The notes below the pieces were generated by a model that was not told the DNA's origin, searched no databases, and worked only from the letters and a program-made list of their open reading frames with translations. Of a DNA stretch of 64,000 bases, positions 2,077 through 64,000 are shown one piece after another. The translations under genes and the position numbers were made by a program. The stretch comes from Escherichia coli O157 typing phage 13: sequence record KP869111, one strand, 5' to 3'. Position 1 is the stretch's first letter, and each line of letters begins with the position of its first letter.

Positions 2077-3892
2077 AGGACATCCATTCTTTACGAAGTT
2101 CTGAATCATCACCCAACAACATTTCAAAGAGTTCTTTCCAATTTTCAGGAAGTTTAACTACGTCGTACACAGGGTTCTGAATCATTTCACGATATTCTGA
2201 CTTTTCAAGGGAGCCTAATCCCTTGATGTATCGAATACTATGCTTAGGCAGTGTATCTTTAACTTCTTCATACTCAGCTACAGTATAAAACCATTTTTGA
2301 GCTTTGCCAATTTGTGCAATAATTACAGGCGTTTTAACAAAGCGAATACGTCCTTGTTCAAACAATTCAGGCCAATTACTAAAGAAAGCAAGCAAAGCCG
2401 GATAGATACTTCCAAGACCGTCGTGATCTGCATCAGTCATAATTGCAATATTACGATAGTTCGTATTCTCTGCCTTTTCACCAAGAATAAGACCTGTGAT
2501 AGCACAGATATCAAAGAGCTCTTTGTTCTTCATCATATCAGCATATGACATACCCCAGCTATTCATCACCTTACCACGTAATGGGAATCCGCCGTGTAGT
2601 TCACGGTCACGAACATCAATGAGATAACCAATTGCAGAATCACCTTCTGTTAAGAACAATGTCGTATCTGCATCTTTACCACATTGGTTAGCTTTAATAT
2701 GCTTATGAACCTTAGCTTTAGTTGCCTTTTTAGCTGCTTTAGTTTCTGCAGCCTTTTCTGCTGCCAATTTACGAGCTAATGCTGCTTCAACAATAGGCAT
2801 AATCAAGGCTTCGTTTTTAAGAAGTGCCTGAGCAATTTTCTTAGCATCTAATTGGATATGATTACGAATATCACCATACGTTGACGTTAAACGTTCTTTA
2901 GTCTGAGAATCAAAACGCATGTTGCTCATGTCTCTAATAAACATCAACATTGTGAGGCATTCTTTAACACGAGCTTTAGTGACTTCAATACCCTTATATT
3001 TCTTTTTAATACCCGGCAAAAGATGTTCGCAGATATCGTCCATTACACATTCAACATGATGACCACCATTTTTAGTATGGATGTTATTCACATAAGTTAA
3101 ATGACGGAAGCCATCTGGTGATGTTGTGAATGCTATAGAGACTTTATCATTTTCTTGAATGATGTTATCTTCACCAAATTGTTTAGCAAATCGTTTAAAA
3201 TTACCATCAACCTTTTTACCATTAAATGTGAACTTGATATCAGGATAAACGACTGCCAATGTTTGAAGTCGGTCTAAAGTAATATCTAAATAAATTTGAG
3301 ATAAATTATGCTCTTCAAATGAAGAGAAATCAGGAGTGAAGATTACTTTAGTGCCTTTACCTTTAGATTTCTTAGAAGACCATGATTTGTTTTCCATTCC
3401 GTTTGAACAGTTAACAGTGATTTCATTTTCGCCATCTGACGTGATGCCTGTAAACAACGTAGAGAAGATATTAGTTAAACTACTCCCGACGCCGTTCATA
3501 CCACCAGTCTTGCGTTCAGAATCATCGCCAAAGTTACCACCAGCTTTTGGAATAGTCCAGGCTGCTACAGGCCCAGGAATTTGTTCACCTGTTTGGTCGG
3601 TAACTAAACCTTGAGGAATACCACGTCCGTTATCTTCCACCGAAACTTGATTATTTTTAATTTGCACATCAATTTTATTTGCAAACTTAAATGATGTACG
3701 AATAGCTTCATCAACCGAGTTGTCAATAATCTCATCGATTAATTTAACCAGACCAGGAACATATTCAACTTGTTGATATTTACCAAACAAAAAACGCTCG
3801 TGGGCTTCTTTGGCCGAAGAACCAATATACATGCCACTACGTTTCTTAATATGTTCTACATCTGACAGTACCTTAATTTCATTTTTAATCAT
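2075..3892 (-). CDS. 39: DNA topoisomerase II large (ATPase, GyrB-like) subunit, single ORF covering the T4 gene 39 + gene 60 functions
   Basis: 605 aa; GHKL ATPase motifs (NGRGIP, GGxxGxG) and Toprim (EGDSA, DADHDG); strong GAGGAG SD; no hop or intron interruption. Confidence 0.9.
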   Translation of the reverse strand: MIKNEIKVLSDVEHIKKRSGMYIGSSAKEAHERFLFGKYQQVEYVPGLVKLIDEIIDNSVDEAIRTSFKFANKIDVQIKNNQVSVEDNGRGIPQGLVTDQTGEQIPGPVAAWTIPKAGGNFGDDSERKTGGMNGVGSSLTNIFSTLFTGITSDGENEITVNCSNGMENKSWSSKKSKGKGTKVIFTPDFSSFEEHNLSQIYLDITLDRLQTLAVVYPDIKFTFNGKKVDGNFKRFAKQFGEDNIIQENDKVSIAFTTSPDGFRHLTYVNNIHTKNGGHHVECVMDDICEHLLPGIKKKYKGIEVTKARVKECLTMLMFIRDMSNMRFDSQTKERLTSTYGDIRNHIQLDAKKIAQALLKNEALIMPIVEAALARKLAAEKAAETKAAKKATKAKVHKHIKANQCGKDADTTLFLTEGDSAIGYLIDVRDRELHGGFPLRGKVMNSWGMSYADMMKNKELFDICAITGLILGEKAENTNYRNIAIMTDADHDGLGSIYPALLAFFSNWPELFEQGRIRFVKTPVIIAQIGKAQKWFYTVAEYEEVKDTLPKHSIRYIKGLGSLEKSEYREMIQNPVYDVVKLPENWKELFEMLLGDDSELRKEWMS

Positions 3893-4455
3893 GTTGTCTC
3901 CTCGTTATGAAGGTATTCTATCATCCGAAATCTAAAGCAAANNNNNNNNNNNNNNNNNNNNNNNNNNNNNNNNNNNNNNNNNNNNNNNNNNNNNNNNNNN
4001 NNNNNNNNNNNNNNNNNNNNNNNNNNNNNNNNNNNNNNNNNNNNNNNNNNNNNNNNNNNNNNNNNNNNNNNNNNNNNNNNNNNNNNNNTTTTAACTGTAA
4101 TGACCACATCACCTGATACGATCACCGAACCATCAACAAATTCTATAGAGCCTTTTTTGAAATCGACAGCTGTATCTGGTTCCGGAACTTCTTCAAAGAA
4201 TTTAAATTCTGCACCATAAATCAGAATATCACCTTGCATACTAATGATTGTACGTCCAGGTCCATCGGTTTCAGCGGCAATCATTGAAACACCGTAGCCA
4301 ATCATCTCTTCTACAATAAAATCTCTTGATAATAAAACCGTATGCAGAGTAGTGTTAAGACGTTTACCAGTCGTATTAAGAATTCTCAAGAAATTATCTT
4401 CCTGTCCTTTGATAATACGATATTTCTTACCAACTTCAAAACCTTTAAAAGCCAT
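3889..4455 (-). CDS. hypothetical protein (ORF spans assembly gap)
   Basis: 188-codon ORF whose stop overlaps gp39 ATG (ATGA); middle 49 codons are N; C-terminal segment carries the gp39 SD. Confidence 0.4.
   Translation of the reverse strand: MAFKGFEVGKKYRIIKGQEDNFLRILNTTGKRLNTTLHTVLLSRDFIVEEMIGYGVSMIAAETDGPGRTIISMQGDILIYGAEFKFFEEVPEPDTAVDFKKGSIEFVDGSVIVSGDVVITVKXXXXXXXXXXXXXXXXXXXXXXXXXXXXXXXXXXXXXXXXXXXXXXXXXXCFRFRMIEYLHNEETT
3942..4088. other. assembly gap (147 N)
   Basis: run of n characters. Confidence 0.95.
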
Positions 4456-29069: not shown

Positions 29070-31781
29070 TCAAAAATCGAACATATCGAACAGAGATGCT
29101 TTCTTCTCGTAATCGAGTTTCGCTGCTGATGTGAATCCTTCAAGTGGTTTAATAAATGTCTTCTCAAGGAGAACAGTGTAGTCCATCCAATGAAGTACGT
29201 CATCTTTAATTAAATCTGTGATTTCAGTACCAGAAGGCCATGCGATACATTTATCACCGAACGGGTTTCCTTCACGTAAAGGCAGAACATATACTTTTTC
29301 ACCTTCTACAACTTGTGGAGCATCAATATTACCTTTGATAGCTCTGTTATATGTCAGAATTCCACGAATATGGAACGGACATTTAGGACCAGGGAATCCA
29401 CCTACATCATATTTAGCAATGTTATTCGCAGAAGATACCGACGCGATGCTAATATAATTCAATTGACGGAATTCTTTTTCAAACTCTTTAAAATATTCTT
29501 GTAATGATTCTTCACCTTCTTGAAGCATACGACGAATACATTCTTTAAGAGCTTTCTGTACTGCTTTAGGGGTCGAAGATTTCTGAGTCTCTAGACCCAT
29601 GATTTTGAGTTTAGGCTCAGCGTAACGAGTACCTTCCATATCCCACACGTTTAATGCGTAACGTTTCTTACCAGTCCAGAATCCACCAATACCTTTAGAA
29701 CCGAGCGGAGGACCAGCGATAGCTTCTCGGTCCATGAACATTAAGTGTTGTTTATTGTTCATGTATTCACACATTTCACGGAAACCTCTATCAATAGCAG
29801 GTTCCATACGTTCACGAGCGAACTTATCTAAGAAGTCTACCCAATGGTTGGTATCACGGAATTTAGATTCACCAACCTTATCGATAATTTTATCAGCAGA
29901 TACGTAAATAGAGTCTGTATCACCATAAAGAACGAAAGCTTCACCTTCTGTACCACAAACTTCGTTCAGATATTCATTAACTTTACGTTCAATCCACTGT
30001 AAAGCCATTTGACCAAATGTTGTGATTGCAGTAGCATTACGCAAATCGTAATAACGGAACCAAACGTTGCCAAGTGCACCATAAAGTGAGTTGATAAGCA
30101 ATTTACGGTTAATTTGTGCAGTCATACCTGCAACTTCAGTACGTTGAGCTCTAAACAACATTTCATTAAGAGATTTAGCAGACAACTTTTTAATCTTTTC
30201 TTTAATCTCGTCAGTGAAGTCGAAACGATAATCAACATCTAATGGTTCGTCAACAGAAAGATTAGGATTATGCAACGCCTCTTTAATTATTTCACCATTA
30301 CGTTGAGCCGCAAGCATATAACCTTTATGTTCTTTACGTTGATTAAAGACCTTAGTGATTTCAGTTGGAACTACACCATCACGGTCTTTATAATACATCA
30401 TGCCATTAGGAGAACAACTGTACACATCTGAAGGACGTTCAGCGATTGCGTTAATATAATCATGCAGTGGAGCTACTTTAAACGTTCCTGCTATTGTTTC
30501 CGGGCTAATATTCACTTGGCGAATAATACTTGGATACAGAGATGTAAGGTCGAAACTCATTACATATTTGTATCGATTTGGAATAGGTTCCTTAACAAAA
30601 GCGCCAGGATAAGGTTGAACCGGGTGAGAACGACCTTGTGGAATCACCTTGTTCTGCTCTTTAAGGCTATTAAAAATAATAGCATCCCATGTTTTAATTG
30701 GGCTAAACACAGATTGAATCTGTATCTTAGCATAATAACCCATGTCCAAACTCAAGTTGATGAACTGACGCTTAGCATCAATTTGCAATACACGATACAC
30801 GTCGATAATGTTATAAGAAATATATCGTTGGTGATTGCTTTCACGAAGCTTAGAAATAGGGCCGTCATATTTCAGTTTACCAACGTTCAATTCAAATTCT
30901 GAAATGTAATCTAGAGAATACGACGGTTGATTGGTAAAAGAGAATTTTTTGTAAAGGTCGATATAATCAAGAACAGAGATACCGAACAATGTAATGATTT
31001 CACGAGAACCATACATGTTTTCGATAACTTTAACACGAGTTTTACGATGCGGTGATAAACGTTTCGCAGTAGATTCGCCAAAAATATTCTTGATTCGGTT
31101 ATACACATATGGAATATCAAATGACTCAACGTTCCATCCAGTCAAAATGACAGGAGTTTTCTGTTGCCAGAAGTTGAGATATTCCATCAACAATTCTTTT
31201 TCGTTATCGAACGGCATATAAATGATTTTATCGATAATTTCAGATGGAACTTCATCACCGCCTTGTTCTTGAAGCTTAGCAGCGATTTCAATAGACCATT
31301 CTTCTACATTACCATATGGAGAATTCAATAGATCAAATACGTAGAACCTGTCGTCAATTGAGTCATAATGGGTGATAGCATCAATCGGATGTTTTGCTTG
31401 TGATGGCTCAGGGAACCCATCCGGAGATGTTACTTCGATGTCGAAGTTAGCCACACGAATTTTTGTATGGTCGTATTTGATTTCATAGTTATAAGTGTCA
31501 GACAAATACGCCAATTTGAAATCGTCCATGCCAAGTGCTTCAAGTCCGATATCTTCCATGCGTTTAATCCATTGGGAGGCATCACGCATATTAGCGAACA
31601 ACTTACGAGTACACGGCTTACCGTAGATATCGAAATATTTCGTAGCCTGACTTTCCGGACAATGAGCAAACAGTGATGGTTTATATTCTACTTCACGAGT
31701 ACGTTCACGGCCATTAGAATCGATGTAACGTTCAAAAATTGAATCACCAATCTGTTCAACCGTTAAGTAAAATTCTTTCAT
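29070..31781 (-). CDS. 43: DNA polymerase (family B) with 3'-5' exonuclease
   Basis: 903 aa; exo motifs FDIE, polymerase motifs SLYPS, K...YG, YGDTDS; N-terminus MKEFYLTVEQIGDSIFERYID matches the RB69 gp43 sequence as I recall it. Confidence 0.95.
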   Translation of the reverse strand: MKEFYLTVEQIGDSIFERYIDSNGRERTREVEYKPSLFAHCPESQATKYFDIYGKPCTRKLFANMRDASQWIKRMEDIGLEALGMDDFKLAYLSDTYNYEIKYDHTKIRVANFDIEVTSPDGFPEPSQAKHPIDAITHYDSIDDRFYVFDLLNSPYGNVEEWSIEIAAKLQEQGGDEVPSEIIDKIIYMPFDNEKELLMEYLNFWQQKTPVILTGWNVESFDIPYVYNRIKNIFGESTAKRLSPHRKTRVKVIENMYGSREIITLFGISVLDYIDLYKKFSFTNQPSYSLDYISEFELNVGKLKYDGPISKLRESNHQRYISYNIIDVYRVLQIDAKRQFINLSLDMGYYAKIQIQSVFSPIKTWDAIIFNSLKEQNKVIPQGRSHPVQPYPGAFVKEPIPNRYKYVMSFDLTSLYPSIIRQVNISPETIAGTFKVAPLHDYINAIAERPSDVYSCSPNGMMYYKDRDGVVPTEITKVFNQRKEHKGYMLAAQRNGEIIKEALHNPNLSVDEPLDVDYRFDFTDEIKEKIKKLSAKSLNEMLFRAQRTEVAGMTAQINRKLLINSLYGALGNVWFRYYDLRNATAITTFGQMALQWIERKVNEYLNEVCGTEGEAFVLYGDTDSIYVSADKIIDKVGESKFRDTNHWVDFLDKFARERMEPAIDRGFREMCEYMNNKQHLMFMDREAIAGPPLGSKGIGGFWTGKKRYALNVWDMEGTRYAEPKLKIMGLETQKSSTPKAVQKALKECIRRMLQEGEESLQEYFKEFEKEFRQLNYISIASVSSANNIAKYDVGGFPGPKCPFHIRGILTYNRAIKGNIDAPQVVEGEKVYVLPLREGNPFGDKCIAWPSGTEITDLIKDDVLHWMDYTVLLEKTFIKPLEGFTSAAKLDYEKKASLFDMFDF

Positions 31782-33836: not shown

Positions 33837-34523
33837 TTAGAAGTCGTGAGTAGAATCGGCTTCCATTGCAATAACATAACTTACTTGAGAGCTTTCAAAC
33901 TTGGCTGCAACTTTATCACCAGCTCCCCACAACATTACTTTATAGTTACCTGGCTGGATTTTCATATTAGCCATATTGATTACAAAGTTAAAGTTATTAG
34001 AACCATCATAATCGGTAAGAGTCAAAGAATACTTAGGACGAGTTAGTCCGGAATCTTCAACTTTATTGTAACCGTTGATAACAATTTTACCATCTTTATT
34101 TGTAATAGCAATTGTATCAATCTGGAGACCACGTGAAACTCGAAGCAATTGTTGAAGGTCTTCAGCTTTAATTTCAGTAATCACAGAAGCCACCGGGAAT
34201 TGAATTGGCTTATTAGGAAAAACAATGGTGCTCTTGTCGGCAGCAGGCCAATAAACTGTGGAACGTGTATCTGCAATTTTAATATTGCCATCGGTGTGCA
34301 TTGAAATTTCAGCATCATCAGACACTAGACTCAAAATGCTTAAGAAGCTATTCAAATCATAAAGTGCTACGTCAAAATCAATTTCATCGGAGATATTTGC
34401 TTCTGCATAAGTGGTGCCATTAACTGCACGGGTCATAATAAATTTACCTTGACTCAGCAGAATGCCGGAGTTAATAGAGGCAAAGTTTTTCAGAATAGCG
34501 ATAGTATCTTTAGACAGTTTCAT
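33837..34523 (-). CDS. 45: sliding clamp
   Basis: MKLSKDTIAILKNFASINSGI... matches T4 gp45; start at MKLSKD (track ORF extends 5 codons). Confidence 0.85.
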   Translation of the reverse strand: MKLSKDTIAILKNFASINSGILLSQGKFIMTRAVNGTTYAEANISDEIDFDVALYDLNSFLSILSLVSDDAEISMHTDGNIKIADTRSTVYWPAADKSTIVFPNKPIQFPVASVITEIKAEDLQQLLRVSRGLQIDTIAITNKDGKIVINGYNKVEDSGLTRPKYSLTLTDYDGSNNFNFVINMANMKIQPGNYKVMLWGAGDKVAAKFESSQVSYVIAMEADSTHDF

Positions 34524-61488: not shown

Positions 61489-61797
61489 TCAATTAGAAAA
61501 TAAATTTATCCAAGTTTTTTCTTTAATCAAAAATGGGTCAGAACTAAACGCCATTAAACTTTGAGTGATTAATCCCTTAAATGGCCCATCAATAAATTCC
61601 ATTTTGAAATGCGGAATACTAGTCATCAACCGTGCGTTAGGAGCAGTACAAAGAACCTGCTGCCCTGCGAACGGACCTTTAGTCAAACGGTATCGTTTAG
61701 GTTTAAAATGGTAAATCTCGTAATTTTCTACAAGAGCCCTTTTATTGCATACTGGGCTGTTATAACAATATTCAAAAACTTCAATAGTGGTCATCAT
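61489..61797 (-). CDS. hypothetical protein
   Basis: 102-aa ORF. Confidence 0.45.
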   Translation of the reverse strand: MMTTIEVFEYCYNSPVCNKRALVENYEIYHFKPKRYRLTKGPFAGQQVLCTAPNARLMTSIPHFKMEFIDGPFKGLITQSLMAFSSDPFLIKEKTWINLFSN

Positions 61798-62333
61798 TGC
61801 ATTCCAATCACAAAAAATTGAGGACGAGCATTACCGCCGATGCAATATTTGCTTTTGCAGCAGTACTGTACTGTTTTAATATGGACATTGTAAATCTTAT
61901 CCATATCAGGAGCTTTAATAGGCTCGTCAATTATATACAGAATACGAGAAAGCGTTAATCCACGGAATTTAGAACCTTCATTGCCAATAAAACTACGAAC
62001 AGAATCAGTAAATAAACGGAATCGAATATCATCGCTAGAATAACGAGAAAATTCTTTTTCAATGTTACCAGCAGAAATTTTAGCATAAGCTGAAGTATTA
62101 GAAAGAACAATAACTGTTCCGCCATCATACAGCCAATTAGCAGCAAAGTTAGTCACAGCAATTGATTTACCGGATTGTCTGCCACCGTCTAAACGAAGTG
62201 TACAGTACTGCTTGAGTACGTCTTCAAACGGTGGGATATAACCGTTCTTACAAATTTCTTCTACTCTAGCATCAGAATGGTGTGTAAAAGCATTCATCAG
62301 GGATAGATAAGGTCCAGTTAAAAATGTTCTCAT
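61794..62333 (-). CDS. hypothetical P-loop-containing protein
   Basis: 179 aa; GGRQSGKS Walker-A-like. Confidence 0.45.
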   Translation of the reverse strand: MRTFLTGPYLSLMNAFTHHSDARVEEICKNGYIPPFEDVLKQYCTLRLDGGRQSGKSIAVTNFAANWLYDGGTVIVLSNTSAYAKISAGNIEKEFSRYSSDDIRFRLFTDSVRSFIGNEGSKFRGLTLSRILYIIDEPIKAPDMDKIYNVHIKTVQYCCKSKYCIGGNARPQFFVIGMQ

Positions 62334-62506
62334 TTAGTTTCTCTTTTATGTTGGGCCATTCCGTGGCACATGTTAGGTCCTTCGACTCGCTATGTAAACC
62401 CATTACCGCACTTGGGCTCGACATTATTACAGGTTGGAAAAGGTACATCACTCAGAGGACTCGACGTTCATGAGGAGAGGTTGCGTTTCCCTTTATTAGG
62501 CAAGAA

Positions 62507-62932
62507 TTATACTCTAGGCTTTTGAGCTTGTTTGGTATTGGATTCCCATGCGGCTTTGGTAATTTTGTTAGTGGCATAACCAAAGGCATTAGATAGAACA
62601 CCTTTAGAGTTGAATACATCCAATCCAATAAGTACACCGGCTGTGTTAAATTTAGGAGCAAAGTACGCATTAGTTTTAGAAAGAGCTTTTTTCAATTCNN
62701 NNNNNNNNNNNNNNNNNNNNNNNNNNNNNNNNNNNNNNNNNNNNNNNNNNNNNNNNNNNNNNNNNNNNNNNNNNNNNNNNNNNNNNNNNNNNNNAGGGTC
62801 TTGAACCAAACCATCAAAAACGCCTTTACTATTTACTTTATATGTTACTTTGGGATTTTTACCTTCTTCGATAGCAGCTTTCTGTTCCGCAGATAATGTA
62901 ACTTCAGTGATAAACTCCTGATATGTTTTCAT
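62507..62932 (-). CDS. head internal protein (IP) with capsid targeting sequence; ORF spans assembly gap
   Basis: N-terminus MKTYQEFITE is the T4 IP capsid-targeting signature; 32 codons are N. Confidence 0.5.
   Translation of the reverse strand: MKTYQEFITEVTLSAEQKAAIEEGKNPKVTYKVNSKGVFDGLVQDPXXXXXXXXXXXXXXXXXXXXXXXXXXXXXXXXELKKALSKTNAYFAPKFNTAGVLIGLDVFNSKGVLSNAFGYATNKITKAAWESNTKQAQKPRV
62699..62794. other. assembly gap (96 N)
   Basis: run of n characters. Confidence 0.95.
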
Positions 62933-62940
62933 TTTGTTCC

Positions 62941-63351
62941 TTAGTAAATTGATTTACCATAGTATTTGTACCAAGTCGGACGTTGAGCAATTTTTTCATC
63001 TAAGCGTGCTTGACTTATCGCAATGGACGCTTCGGACGGGACGTAATTATTACGAAATTCTACAGGAATGTCGGAAATATCCTGGACTGTCGTGTCCTTG
63101 ATTTTGAAACCACGTTTCAAGCATTCGGCGATTAGCTCGATTTGACGTAAACGTAAAAATTCGAGTTTGTCGTAAAAGAATGTTACGTGACCTGTGCCTA
63201 AGATAAATGTTGGAGAGATTTTAAAATCCTTTACACGTTTACCGTTTTGAACATGTTTACGGACTGCACCAAATACGCGTGGTAATTCACGATACTCAGC
63301 CATAAGATGTTGGTCGGACAGTTCAGAAACAAGTGTTAAATTGATACGAGT
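62941..63351 (-). CDS. denV: endonuclease V (pyrimidine dimer DNA glycosylase)
   Basis: [31 protein letters not shown] matches T4 DenV; start at MTRINL (track ORF extends 5 codons). Confidence 0.85.
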
Positions 63352-63381
63352 CATAATTTCCTCCAAGTAGTTGATGAATGT

Positions 63382-63411
63382 ATAGTATCAAAACTCTTGG
63401 AGGAAGTAAAC
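63382..63411 (-). promoter_or_regulatory. early-type promoter GTTTAC-N18-TACTAT with inverted repeat (CTCCAAG / CTTGGAG) around the denV SD
   Basis: seen on minus strand upstream of denV ATG. Confidence 0.5.
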
Positions 63412-63412
63412 A

Positions 63413-63694
63413 CTATTTTTCTGAAGCGCCTGAAATATATTTTTCAAGACGTTGTTTCATCAGCGAGCCGTTCTTAGCGATTTCTTCCGGTTTATCGCAC
63501 ATACGCAACAAGGCTTCAAGCTTAACGATATCACTGGTGCGCTCAAATTTGCGAGTATCTATCTTACTGGCAAGTTCAGAAATACGTGCTAATAGACTTT
63601 CAGCTTCAACCAAAGCTGCACCTAGCTTAGTTGCAAATGTGTCAGTAGCTTCGTTAAGAATAGATTCTGATAAAAATTCACTATATGTTTTCAT
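63413..63694 (-). CDS. head internal protein (IP) with capsid targeting sequence
   Basis: [10 protein letters not shown] at the N-terminus (track ORF begins 5 codons upstream); position of ipII/ipIII between denV and e. Confidence 0.5.
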
Positions 63695-64000
63695 ATATAC
63701 GCTTTCCAAGTTCCTGTTTTAAATGTTGAGATTACGCGTTTCGCTCGATTAGGTGTCTGACGGTACCATTTAGATTGGGCTAGATTTACTGCCGCTTCAT
63801 CCCAACGTTTCTGTTGAAGCATACGAAGAGAATTAGTAAAACCAGCGACGCCTGCTACACCCATTTGGAAGACCATATTGACCAATGCACATCGACGAAC
63901 CGCATCTAAAGAATCATATACCGGTTTAAGTTTAGCATTACCCAAGATTCCGCGAACGGCTTTATCAACGTCTTCATTAAATAGCTTTTCAGCCTCATCA
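63691..64000 (-). CDS. e: lysozyme (endolysin e), C-terminal part; 5' end beyond window
   Basis: [36 protein letters not shown]...[15 protein letters not shown] matches T4 lysozyme residues about 60-160; frame open to window edge. Confidence 0.85.

Follow-up and report, generated by a model that had tools for sequence, protein, structure and literature searches.

The closest described systems are the internal proteins (Ips) of phage T4, a class of proteins that are directed to the prohead by a capsid-targeting sequence (CTS), processed by the gp21 protease and injected with the genome. The first ten residues of T4 IPIII are necessary and sufficient for packaging; residues 4 and 7 act in targeting, residues 8 and 10 act in processing, and gp21 cleaves after L/I-x-E (reviewed in PMC9026906). 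An original prediction on the DNA analysed here stated that Ip loci encode injected anti-restriction factors, and this is borne out by T4 Ip1, Ip2 and Ip3, which are mutually unrelated and each inhibit a different GmrSD type IV nuclease without cross-protection; all proteins of both Ip loci have been proposed to target GmrSD variants (PMC12373910). In this study we consider two small open reading frames (ORFs) in a 64,000-nucleotide stretch of Escherichia coli O157 typing phage 13 (record KP869111), referred to as the window. IP93 is the name used for an ORF of 93 amino acids (aa), and IP109 the name used for a second small ORF, which has 109 aa without a run of Ns in its sequence. The two ORFs lie on either side of denV and are typical examples of an already known class of rapidly shuffling, likely anti-restriction proteins. 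It is very probable that both are packaged and injected, as their N-terminal signals suggest, and a role as packaged and injected anti-defence proteins is the favoured, though less secure, interpretation.

Both ORFs carry the CTS residues Tyr4, Phe7, Leu/Ile8 and Glu10, in agreement with the prediction. The N-terminus of IP109 is MKTYQEFITE, compared to MKTYQEFIAE in T4 IPII and IPIII. In a six-frame translation of the window, the pattern MK.Y.EF is found only at the starts of IP93 and IP109, while 200 Markov-simulated sequences gave a mean of 0.015 chance matches and a maximum of 1. Each ORF also has an L/I-x-E motif of the kind that closes the propeptides (10–19 residues) of this class. In IP109 this is ITE at residues 8–10, with a predicted cut after Glu10; IP93 contains LSE at 8–10 and LNE at 13–15, with predicted cuts after Glu10 and Glu15. 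A head maturation protease, scaffold and core proteins, corresponding to the gp21 prohead protease and the gp22/67/68 scaffolding core, are annotated outside the window region in NC_041863, a genome 100% identical to the window on both sides of the N run.

The shared start MKTY..EF..E could instead be a conserved translation-initiation and recombination module, with the proteins acting in the cell unpackaged. The boundaries of an indel at this locus fall exactly in the module composed of the Shine-Dalgarno (SD) sequence, the ATG and the CTS codons, which is therefore clearly a recombination substrate, and the RB69 copies tolerate a change at position 10 and a frameshifted stretch. However, the conserved positions are those mapped for targeting and cleavage (Y4, F7, L/I8, E10), they are conserved at the amino-acid level over differing codons (GAA versus GAG, TTA versus ATC), even the aberrant RB69 copy retains Y4 and F7, and the T4 decapeptide by itself packages foreign proteins (PMC9026906). 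We consider a module without packaging highly improbable.

Three further CTS ORFs are found in NC_041863, outside the window (30839–31455 and 33858–34322 of the NC_041863 sequence). One is an IPI homologue, which starts MKTYKEFISPVANVSTLTE and has a long propeptide ending in LTE19, and an adjoining ORF of 87 aa begins MKTYKEFIAE. The third, of 154 aa and beginning MKSYAEFLTE, is located past the tRNA genes and outside both classical Ip loci.

The genome of the window belongs to Mosigvirus, the RB69-like group. Without the N run, positions 62300–64000 are 100% identical to E. coli O157 typing phages 3 and 6, and many other Mosigvirus genomes are approximately 97–98% identical over this region. 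All genes are on the minus strand, in the order e, IP93, a 58-nt spacer, denV, IP109, 173 nt without an ORF, and homologues of vs.8, vs.7 and vs.6 (grcA). The features are as follows.

63691..64000, minus strand: gene e (lysozyme), 3′ part, truncated at the end of the window and adjoining IP93 on its upstream side.
63413..63694, minus strand: IP93, Ip5-family internal protein, 93 aa (ORF, CTS motif, phrog_3499, RefSeq annotation).
63355..63412, minus strand: spacer before denV, with a hairpin and an early-promoter-like sequence (folding, T4 comparison).
62941..63354, minus strand: denV, pyrimidine-dimer DNA glycosylase (endonuclease V; Pfam PF03013 Pyr_excise, E = 4.8e-14).
62507..62932, minus strand: IP109, candidate internal protein, RB69ORF123c family (CTS MKTYQEFITE; 141 codons, 32 of them X).
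62699..62794, strand-less: 96-N run inside IP109, in frame; compared to every sequenced relative it adds sequence, of unknown or artificial content, and replaces none.
62336..62500, minus strand: conserved GC-rich non-coding element, vs.8 leader (nucleotide conservation, covariation).
61794..62333, minus strand: vs.8-like P-loop protein, 179 aa, 90% identical to T4 vs.8 residues 38–219.

The denV gene, annotated as such in NC_041863, APCEc01, RB69 and T4, separates two slots for internal-protein cassettes. The ATG of IP93 overlaps the e stop codon (ATGA), and IP109 begins 8 nt past denV, with its SD sequence AAGGA overlapping the denV stop. At the same position T4 has the order e-ipIII-ipII-denV-vs.8, so that the interval from e through denV to vs.8 is syntenic with the T4 ipIII/ipII locus, one of the two T-even Ip loci.

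The locus is hypervariable, as the prediction stated for T-even Ip loci. We surveyed 36 T4-like denV loci from IMG/VR, of which 29 contain CTS ORFs: upstream of denV in 26, downstream in 22, on both sides in 19 and on neither side in 7. The commonest occupied state is one CTS ORF upstream and one downstream, as found here. The prediction drew attention to two internal proteins flanking denV; this arrangement is present, but it is not a peculiarity of the phage, since CTS ORFs flanking denV are the rule in T4 relatives and T4 itself is the exception. More distant phages carrying denV have no such CTS ORFs. The 79 CTS proteins fall into 16 unrelated body families, and cassettes of the Ip3 and Ip7 families are seen on either side of denV.

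Relative to the window, APCEc01 and RB69 contain two extra CTS ORFs between denV and IP109, beginning MKMYQEFIIE (86 aa) and MKTYKEFIAE (90–104 aa). The corresponding 663-bp indel is bounded on both sides by the module TAAGGAA(A/C)AAAATGAAAA, which consists of the stop/SD, the ATG and the first CTS codons. Recombination within this signal-coding module explains the gain and loss of the cassettes. Among the top 30 relatives, loci with and without the extra cassettes are both common (three versus two aligned pieces). According to PMC4122927, which cites Repoila 1994, Ip loci were described earlier as shuffled palettes. Overall, the interval comprises two cassette slots (e to denV and denV to vs.8) between conserved flanks, and recombination at the recurring SD-ATG-CTS module adds, removes and relocates cassettes. 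One further observation concerns the extra cassettes of APCEc01, between which lies a near-consensus early promoter, GTTTACGCTTAAGTATTAATATGGTATAAT (3878–3940 of the extracted locus), belonging to one of them. Some Ip cassettes may thus also be expressed early and not only for packaging.

IP93 is a member of the Ip5 family. Its sequence falls in phrog_3499 (E = 1.2e-46), “internal head protein”, a label that it also bears in RefSeq, and is 47.6–51.2% identical to the annotated ip5 products of T2, PP01 and AR1 (residues 1–84; E = 1e-15 to 2e-17). Homologues are found in 238 records. The gene is under purifying selection, with a ratio of non-synonymous to synonymous substitution rates (dN/dS) of 0.04–0.14 in comparisons to relatives with dS up to 0.53. 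Examination of the N-terminal family alignment reveals that the Glu10 site is not kept across the family, being replaced by ATK in T2 and by LTV in some Mosigvirus phages, while the L/I-x-E at residues 13–15 is invariant. Consequently, the Ip5-family propeptide is probably 15 residues long. The predicted mature form of IP93 (~78–83 aa) is neutral, with an isoelectric point (pI) of 6.3. Ip5 is among the extra Ips reported in T-even phages, according to PMC12373910, whose source for this (its ref. 27) is the work of Repoila et al. (1994) on the T4 IP locus, as identified through PMC4122927.

IP109, which has no match to phrog_3499, is 97% identical to RB69ORF123c and annotated everywhere as hypothetical. 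It falls in phrog_3966 (unknown function; E = 4.5e-32). A tblastn search detected it in 90 of 50,697 phage records; 77 of these matches, from RB69 relatives, have at least 95% identity, and 13 have less than 60%, those checked among the 13 being from Dhakavirus. Identity is 34–36% to the Dhakavirus ORFs and 35% to WG01 ORF115, and the Dhakavirus homologue (35% identical) keeps the length and CTS of IP109. When 1.84 billion representatives were scanned in full with HMMER, the only additions were the Dhakavirus form and repeat proteins judged to be spurious. Three comparisons yielded 12 synonymous and 7 non-synonymous differences. The predicted mature protein (99 aa) is Lys-rich with a pI of 9.7, like T4 IPII* and IPIII*. 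Taken together, the signal, the selection on IP93, and the kept length and CTS of IP109 indicate that both are real genes with a functional-looking signal.

The first mature residues of IP109 (VTLSAEQKAAIEEGKNPKVTYKV, within residues 11–45, 62798–62902 on the minus strand) resemble the start of an MBG repeat (ITVTADAKSRAYGDANPALTYQV). The repeats compared are MBG (YGX-type, Pfam PF18676) repeats of bacterial adhesins secreted by the TPS pathway, and a full-library phmmer search with IP109 returned MBG-repeat adhesins at E = 4e-10 to 1e-5. An MBG domain was nevertheless rejected as unsupported. The phmmer scores are inflated by near-identical repeats, the PF18676 model has no match even at E ≤ 10, BLASTP with a single repeat gives E of about 0.001, and a profile comparison of the family to MBG repeats with hhalign aligns 24 columns at a probability of 11%.

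The prediction described one of the two ORFs as interrupted by an assembly gap. The 96-N run (62699–62794; 32 codons, in frame) is real, but no sequenced relative has an interruption. In NC_041863 the 192-nt and 138-nt flanks abut exactly, giving an intact ORF of 330 nt and 109 aa; the span is exactly 327 nt in 34 of 34 relatives with at least 96% identity among the matches listed, and APCEc01 and RB69 also have no bases at this site. A second N run in the window, at 3942–4088, has 147 Ns in place of 70 nt in NC_041863 (145882–145951 of that record), which indicates that the lengths of N runs in the window are arbitrary and not real distances. Within these 70 nt a T-run comes after a GC hairpin (AAGGGCCGAAGCCCTTATTT), and the gene annotated as the large subunit of topoisomerase II lies just downstream. 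The abutting flanks and the second run also reject the N run of IP109 as a length-preserving mask. To judge from the relatives, the IP109 gene appears to be complete as 109 aa, although this isolate could carry additional bases at the position of the Ns.

By analogy with T4, IP93 and IP109 would be produced during head assembly, and the N-terminal CTS would dock them to the prohead scaffolding core. The gp21 protease would then trim the propeptide, after Glu10 in IP109 and after Glu10 and/or Glu15 in IP93. The mature forms, one basic and of ~99 aa and the other neutral and of ~78–83 aa, would stay with the packaged DNA and be injected with the genome. In the cell, each would most likely block a single variant of a defence nuclease that acts on modified DNA, in the manner of T4 Ip1–3. 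T4 IPIII lacking its CTS is active from a plasmid (PMC9391042), which places its activity in the cytoplasm. What they would protect is Mosigvirus DNA, whose 5-hydroxycytosine is mono- and di-arabinosylated, with an ether bond joining the sugar to C5 (PMC13390438, PMC13326640).

A different role for the packaged proteins could be to serve the virion, either as counter-ions or organizers of the condensed DNA or as helpers in the assembly of the prohead core. This would be consistent with the Lys-rich, basic character of mature IP109, with the contacts reported between lysines of internal proteins and the phosphates of packaged DNA (PMC3012670), and with T4 IPIII mutants, which assemble heads more slowly and give polyheads (PMC9026906); it would resemble the reported consequences of losing IPIII, which affect burst size and the rate at which heads are assembled. 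A virion role does not, however, predict 16 body families, presence or absence of cassettes among near-identical phages, or cassette shuffling. The restriction of IP109 to only 77 records, compared to 238 for IP93, and the neutral charge of mature IP93 also argue against it, and all three of the T4 Ips studied proved to be specific nuclease inhibitors (PMC12373910). We therefore regard a virion role as unlikely and favour injected anti-defence proteins.

As to the target, single-target inhibition of GmrSD-type nucleases is the best-supported reading by analogy, and we propose it tentatively, at somewhat less than an even chance. GmrSD enzymes of CT596 and UTI89 cut RB69 DNA (PMC6024577), and the Mosigvirus phage NP is sensitive to the GmrSD-family enzyme BrxU, which cleaved all modifications tested in vitro (PMC13390438). 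The two proteins could also be injected to counter other first-response systems, such as defence DNA glycosylases directed at glycosylated cytosine, or bacteriophage exclusion (BREX). Their bodies share nothing with Ip1–3, the Mosigvirus DNA chemistry (arabinosyl-5-hydroxycytosine with a C5 ether link) is unlike that of T4, and other defences recognizing modified T-even DNA do exist (for example, PMC11078745 and PMC12191111). On the other hand, each of the three Ips with a known target hits a GmrSD variant even though the three are mutually unrelated, and GmrSD-family enzymes do cut Mosigvirus DNA. Targets outside the GmrSD family are thus rather improbable for the pair.

A narrower proposal can be made for IP109. 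Mosigvirus and Dhakavirus are both reported to carry a cytosine-arabinosylation gene cluster. In the 50,697 phage records IP109 was found only in these two genera, and it could be a lineage-specific injected inhibitor tuned to a defence that recognizes arabinosylated 5-hydroxycytosine DNA, a speculation that we offer with considerable doubt. If it is correct, IP109 would define a new inhibitor–defence pair outside the glucosyl-hydroxymethylcytosine world of T4, and IP93, by contrast, would be a broader-range Ip5-type inhibitor common to Mosigvirus and Tequatrovirus.

Several points weigh against IP93 and IP109 as packaged, injected inhibitors of this kind. In a literature search we found no Mosigvirus virion proteome reporting either protein, and their virion association and processing are deduced from the signal. 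The prediction was right that the two bodies are unrelated: similarity between IP93 and IP109 stops after residues 11–17, as does the similarity of each to T4 IPII and IPIII, and BLASTP from residue 11 on gives E > 0.2 in every pairing. These values and the separate family clusters led us to reject homology of either body to IPII or IPIII, and neither body is homologous to Ip1, Ip2 or Ip3. Searches of Pfam, NCBIfam and PDB sequences returned no relative for IP93 or IP109, and a word-index protein search with both returned near-identical relatives only. The structure models are weak, with a predicted local distance difference test score (pLDDT) of 73 for IP93 and 49 for IP109; the IP93 model is all-helical, with three helices, and has no Foldseek match in the PDB at E < 3, and that of IP109 is unusable. 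In the RB69 genome the signals themselves are altered. RB69ORF123c has Ala in place of Glu10 (E10A), and the start of p127 (MKTYMNFYQNLSLNE) contains an apparent compensated frameshift that keeps Y4, F7 and the LNE15 site (2501–2830 and 1076–1357 of the extracted RB69 locus comprise the copies). The signal is consequently under no absolute constraint, although these non-canonical forms may be sequencing errors in an old record or may represent truly altered processing.

Expression provides a further difficulty. The T4 late promoter TATAAATA was not found within 62300–64000. The best candidate, TACAAATA, was rejected as a late promoter, as it has one mismatch to TATAAATA and lies inside denV. 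Translation of IP93 is probably coupled to that of e on the late e transcript, so that late expression of the pair would depend on coupling to e and on read-through. A hairpin in front of denV could limit translation of denV on read-through transcripts.

This hairpin has 10-bp arms, TTCCTCCAAG at 63405–63396 and CTTGGAGGAA at 63367–63358, and a folding energy of -20.7 kcal/mol (z = -3.9), which none of 200 shuffles equalled. The denV SD sequence is inside the 3′ arm and thus sequestered, and an early-promoter-like sequence, TTTACT-N17-TACTAT, overlaps the 5′ arm and the loop. In T4 the denV hairpin has the same architecture, with other but complementary arms (CTCCTGTAG and CTACAGGAG). The structure resembles the promoter-early stem-loops (PeSLs), which have the promoter consensus TTTACW-N17-TAYWAT and are proposed to mediate modular shuffling (PMC4122927). 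The overlap of promoter and hairpin suggests that denV is probably translated from transcripts begun inside the hairpin rather than from read-through transcripts.

Past IP109, the 173 nt without an ORF have 46% GC, compared to 37% for the window. Within them, the element at 62336–62500 has 77–98% nucleotide identity in about 35 T4-like loci, including T4, and is always located between the last cassette and vs.8, whichever cassette precedes it. It marks the constant right-hand end of the array. In T4 it is annotated as the first 40 codons of vs.8. A coding N-terminus of vs.8 was rejected for the window, where the pieces are in three frames with a stop before MRTFLTG, which indicates that the element is non-coding here. 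It is also single-copy, with one nhmmer hit in the window and none in 38 kb more of the genome or in two further loci. The spacer as a decayed internal-protein cassette was rejected, with no tblastn similarity to 69 CTS ORFs, as was a stable single-sequence fold of the 173 nt (z = +1.8). Searches for a known RNA or tRNA in the element gave no Rfam or ARAGORN match.

Compensatory changes are found in at least three helices of the element, with 89% of cells paired compared to 21–60% with slid partners. Eight pairs are changed on both sides, a number reached by none of 500 shuffles, although few independent events underlie this covariation. The element is probably a structured leader or 3′ element. 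One of its hairpins has a GGA loop (A/U/C-GGA) on a stem that varies by lineage (GCCA/UGGC, GGCA/UGCC, GACA/UGUC, CAGCA/UGCUG), and we take this hairpin to resemble a putative CsrA-type site. An alternative pairing is possible between the central CCUUU and the downstream AAAGG. The element also contains an early-promoter-like sequence, TTTACA-N17-TAACAT, at 62398–62370.

Of all phage proteins, the internal proteins are those that the host encounters first, and every one characterized has revealed a specific defence nuclease. The concept of an injected Ip with anti-defence activity is already established; only T4 Ip1–3 have known targets, while Ip5 and the RB69ORF123c family have none. The sugar and linkage in Mosigvirus DNA differ from those in T4, which makes the Ips of this genus probes for defences directed at arabinosylated DNA. 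In practical terms the value is moderate and consists of two candidates with predicted mature N-termini. In addition, the cassette map (two slots, 16 body families) could guide a screen of Ips against GmrSD enzymes or host-range engineering of therapeutic T4-like phages. The original prediction called both proteins candidates for novel anti-defence factors. The word novel is overstated: IP93 is an Ip5 homologue labelled as an internal head protein in both RefSeq and PHROGs, and IP109 alone is unlabelled.

Among known proteins, IP109 is closest to RB69ORF123c and WG01 ORF115, which occupy the same place downstream of denV and share its CTS start. Both are known only as annotated hypothetical proteins, and the Ala at position 10 distinguishes RB69ORF123c from IP109. 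For IP93, the closest are the Ip5 proteins of T2, PP01 and AR1, which belong to the same PHROG and have the L/I-x-E at residues 13–15 in common with it. In T2, however, ip5 is found in the other Ip locus (57B-ip5-ip7-tRNA) rather than in the e-denV locus, which indicates that the Ip5 cassette has moved between the two loci, and the T2 propeptide (MKTFKEFATKTTITE), unlike that of IP93, has no Glu10 site.

T4 IPII and IPIII resemble the two proteins in their locus between e and vs.8, the decapeptide signal, the small size and the predicted gp21 processing; the basic mature form is shared by IP109 only, and the mode of delivery is presumably the same. In T4 both genes are upstream of denV, whereas here there is one on each side. 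The T4 proteins have known targets, Ip2 and Ip3 acting on the GmrSD of ECOR21 and ECOR17, respectively (PMC12373910), while IP93 and IP109 are known from sequence alone. T4 IPI* (Ip1) differs in having a 19-residue propeptide, an unrelated body and a solved compact fold, compared to no PDB relative for IP93 or IP109. Nevertheless, IP93 and IP109 appear by their signal to be members of the same class of CTS-targeted, gp21-processed, injected proteins as IPI*, and the genome NC_041863 itself has the IPI homologue in its second Ip locus.

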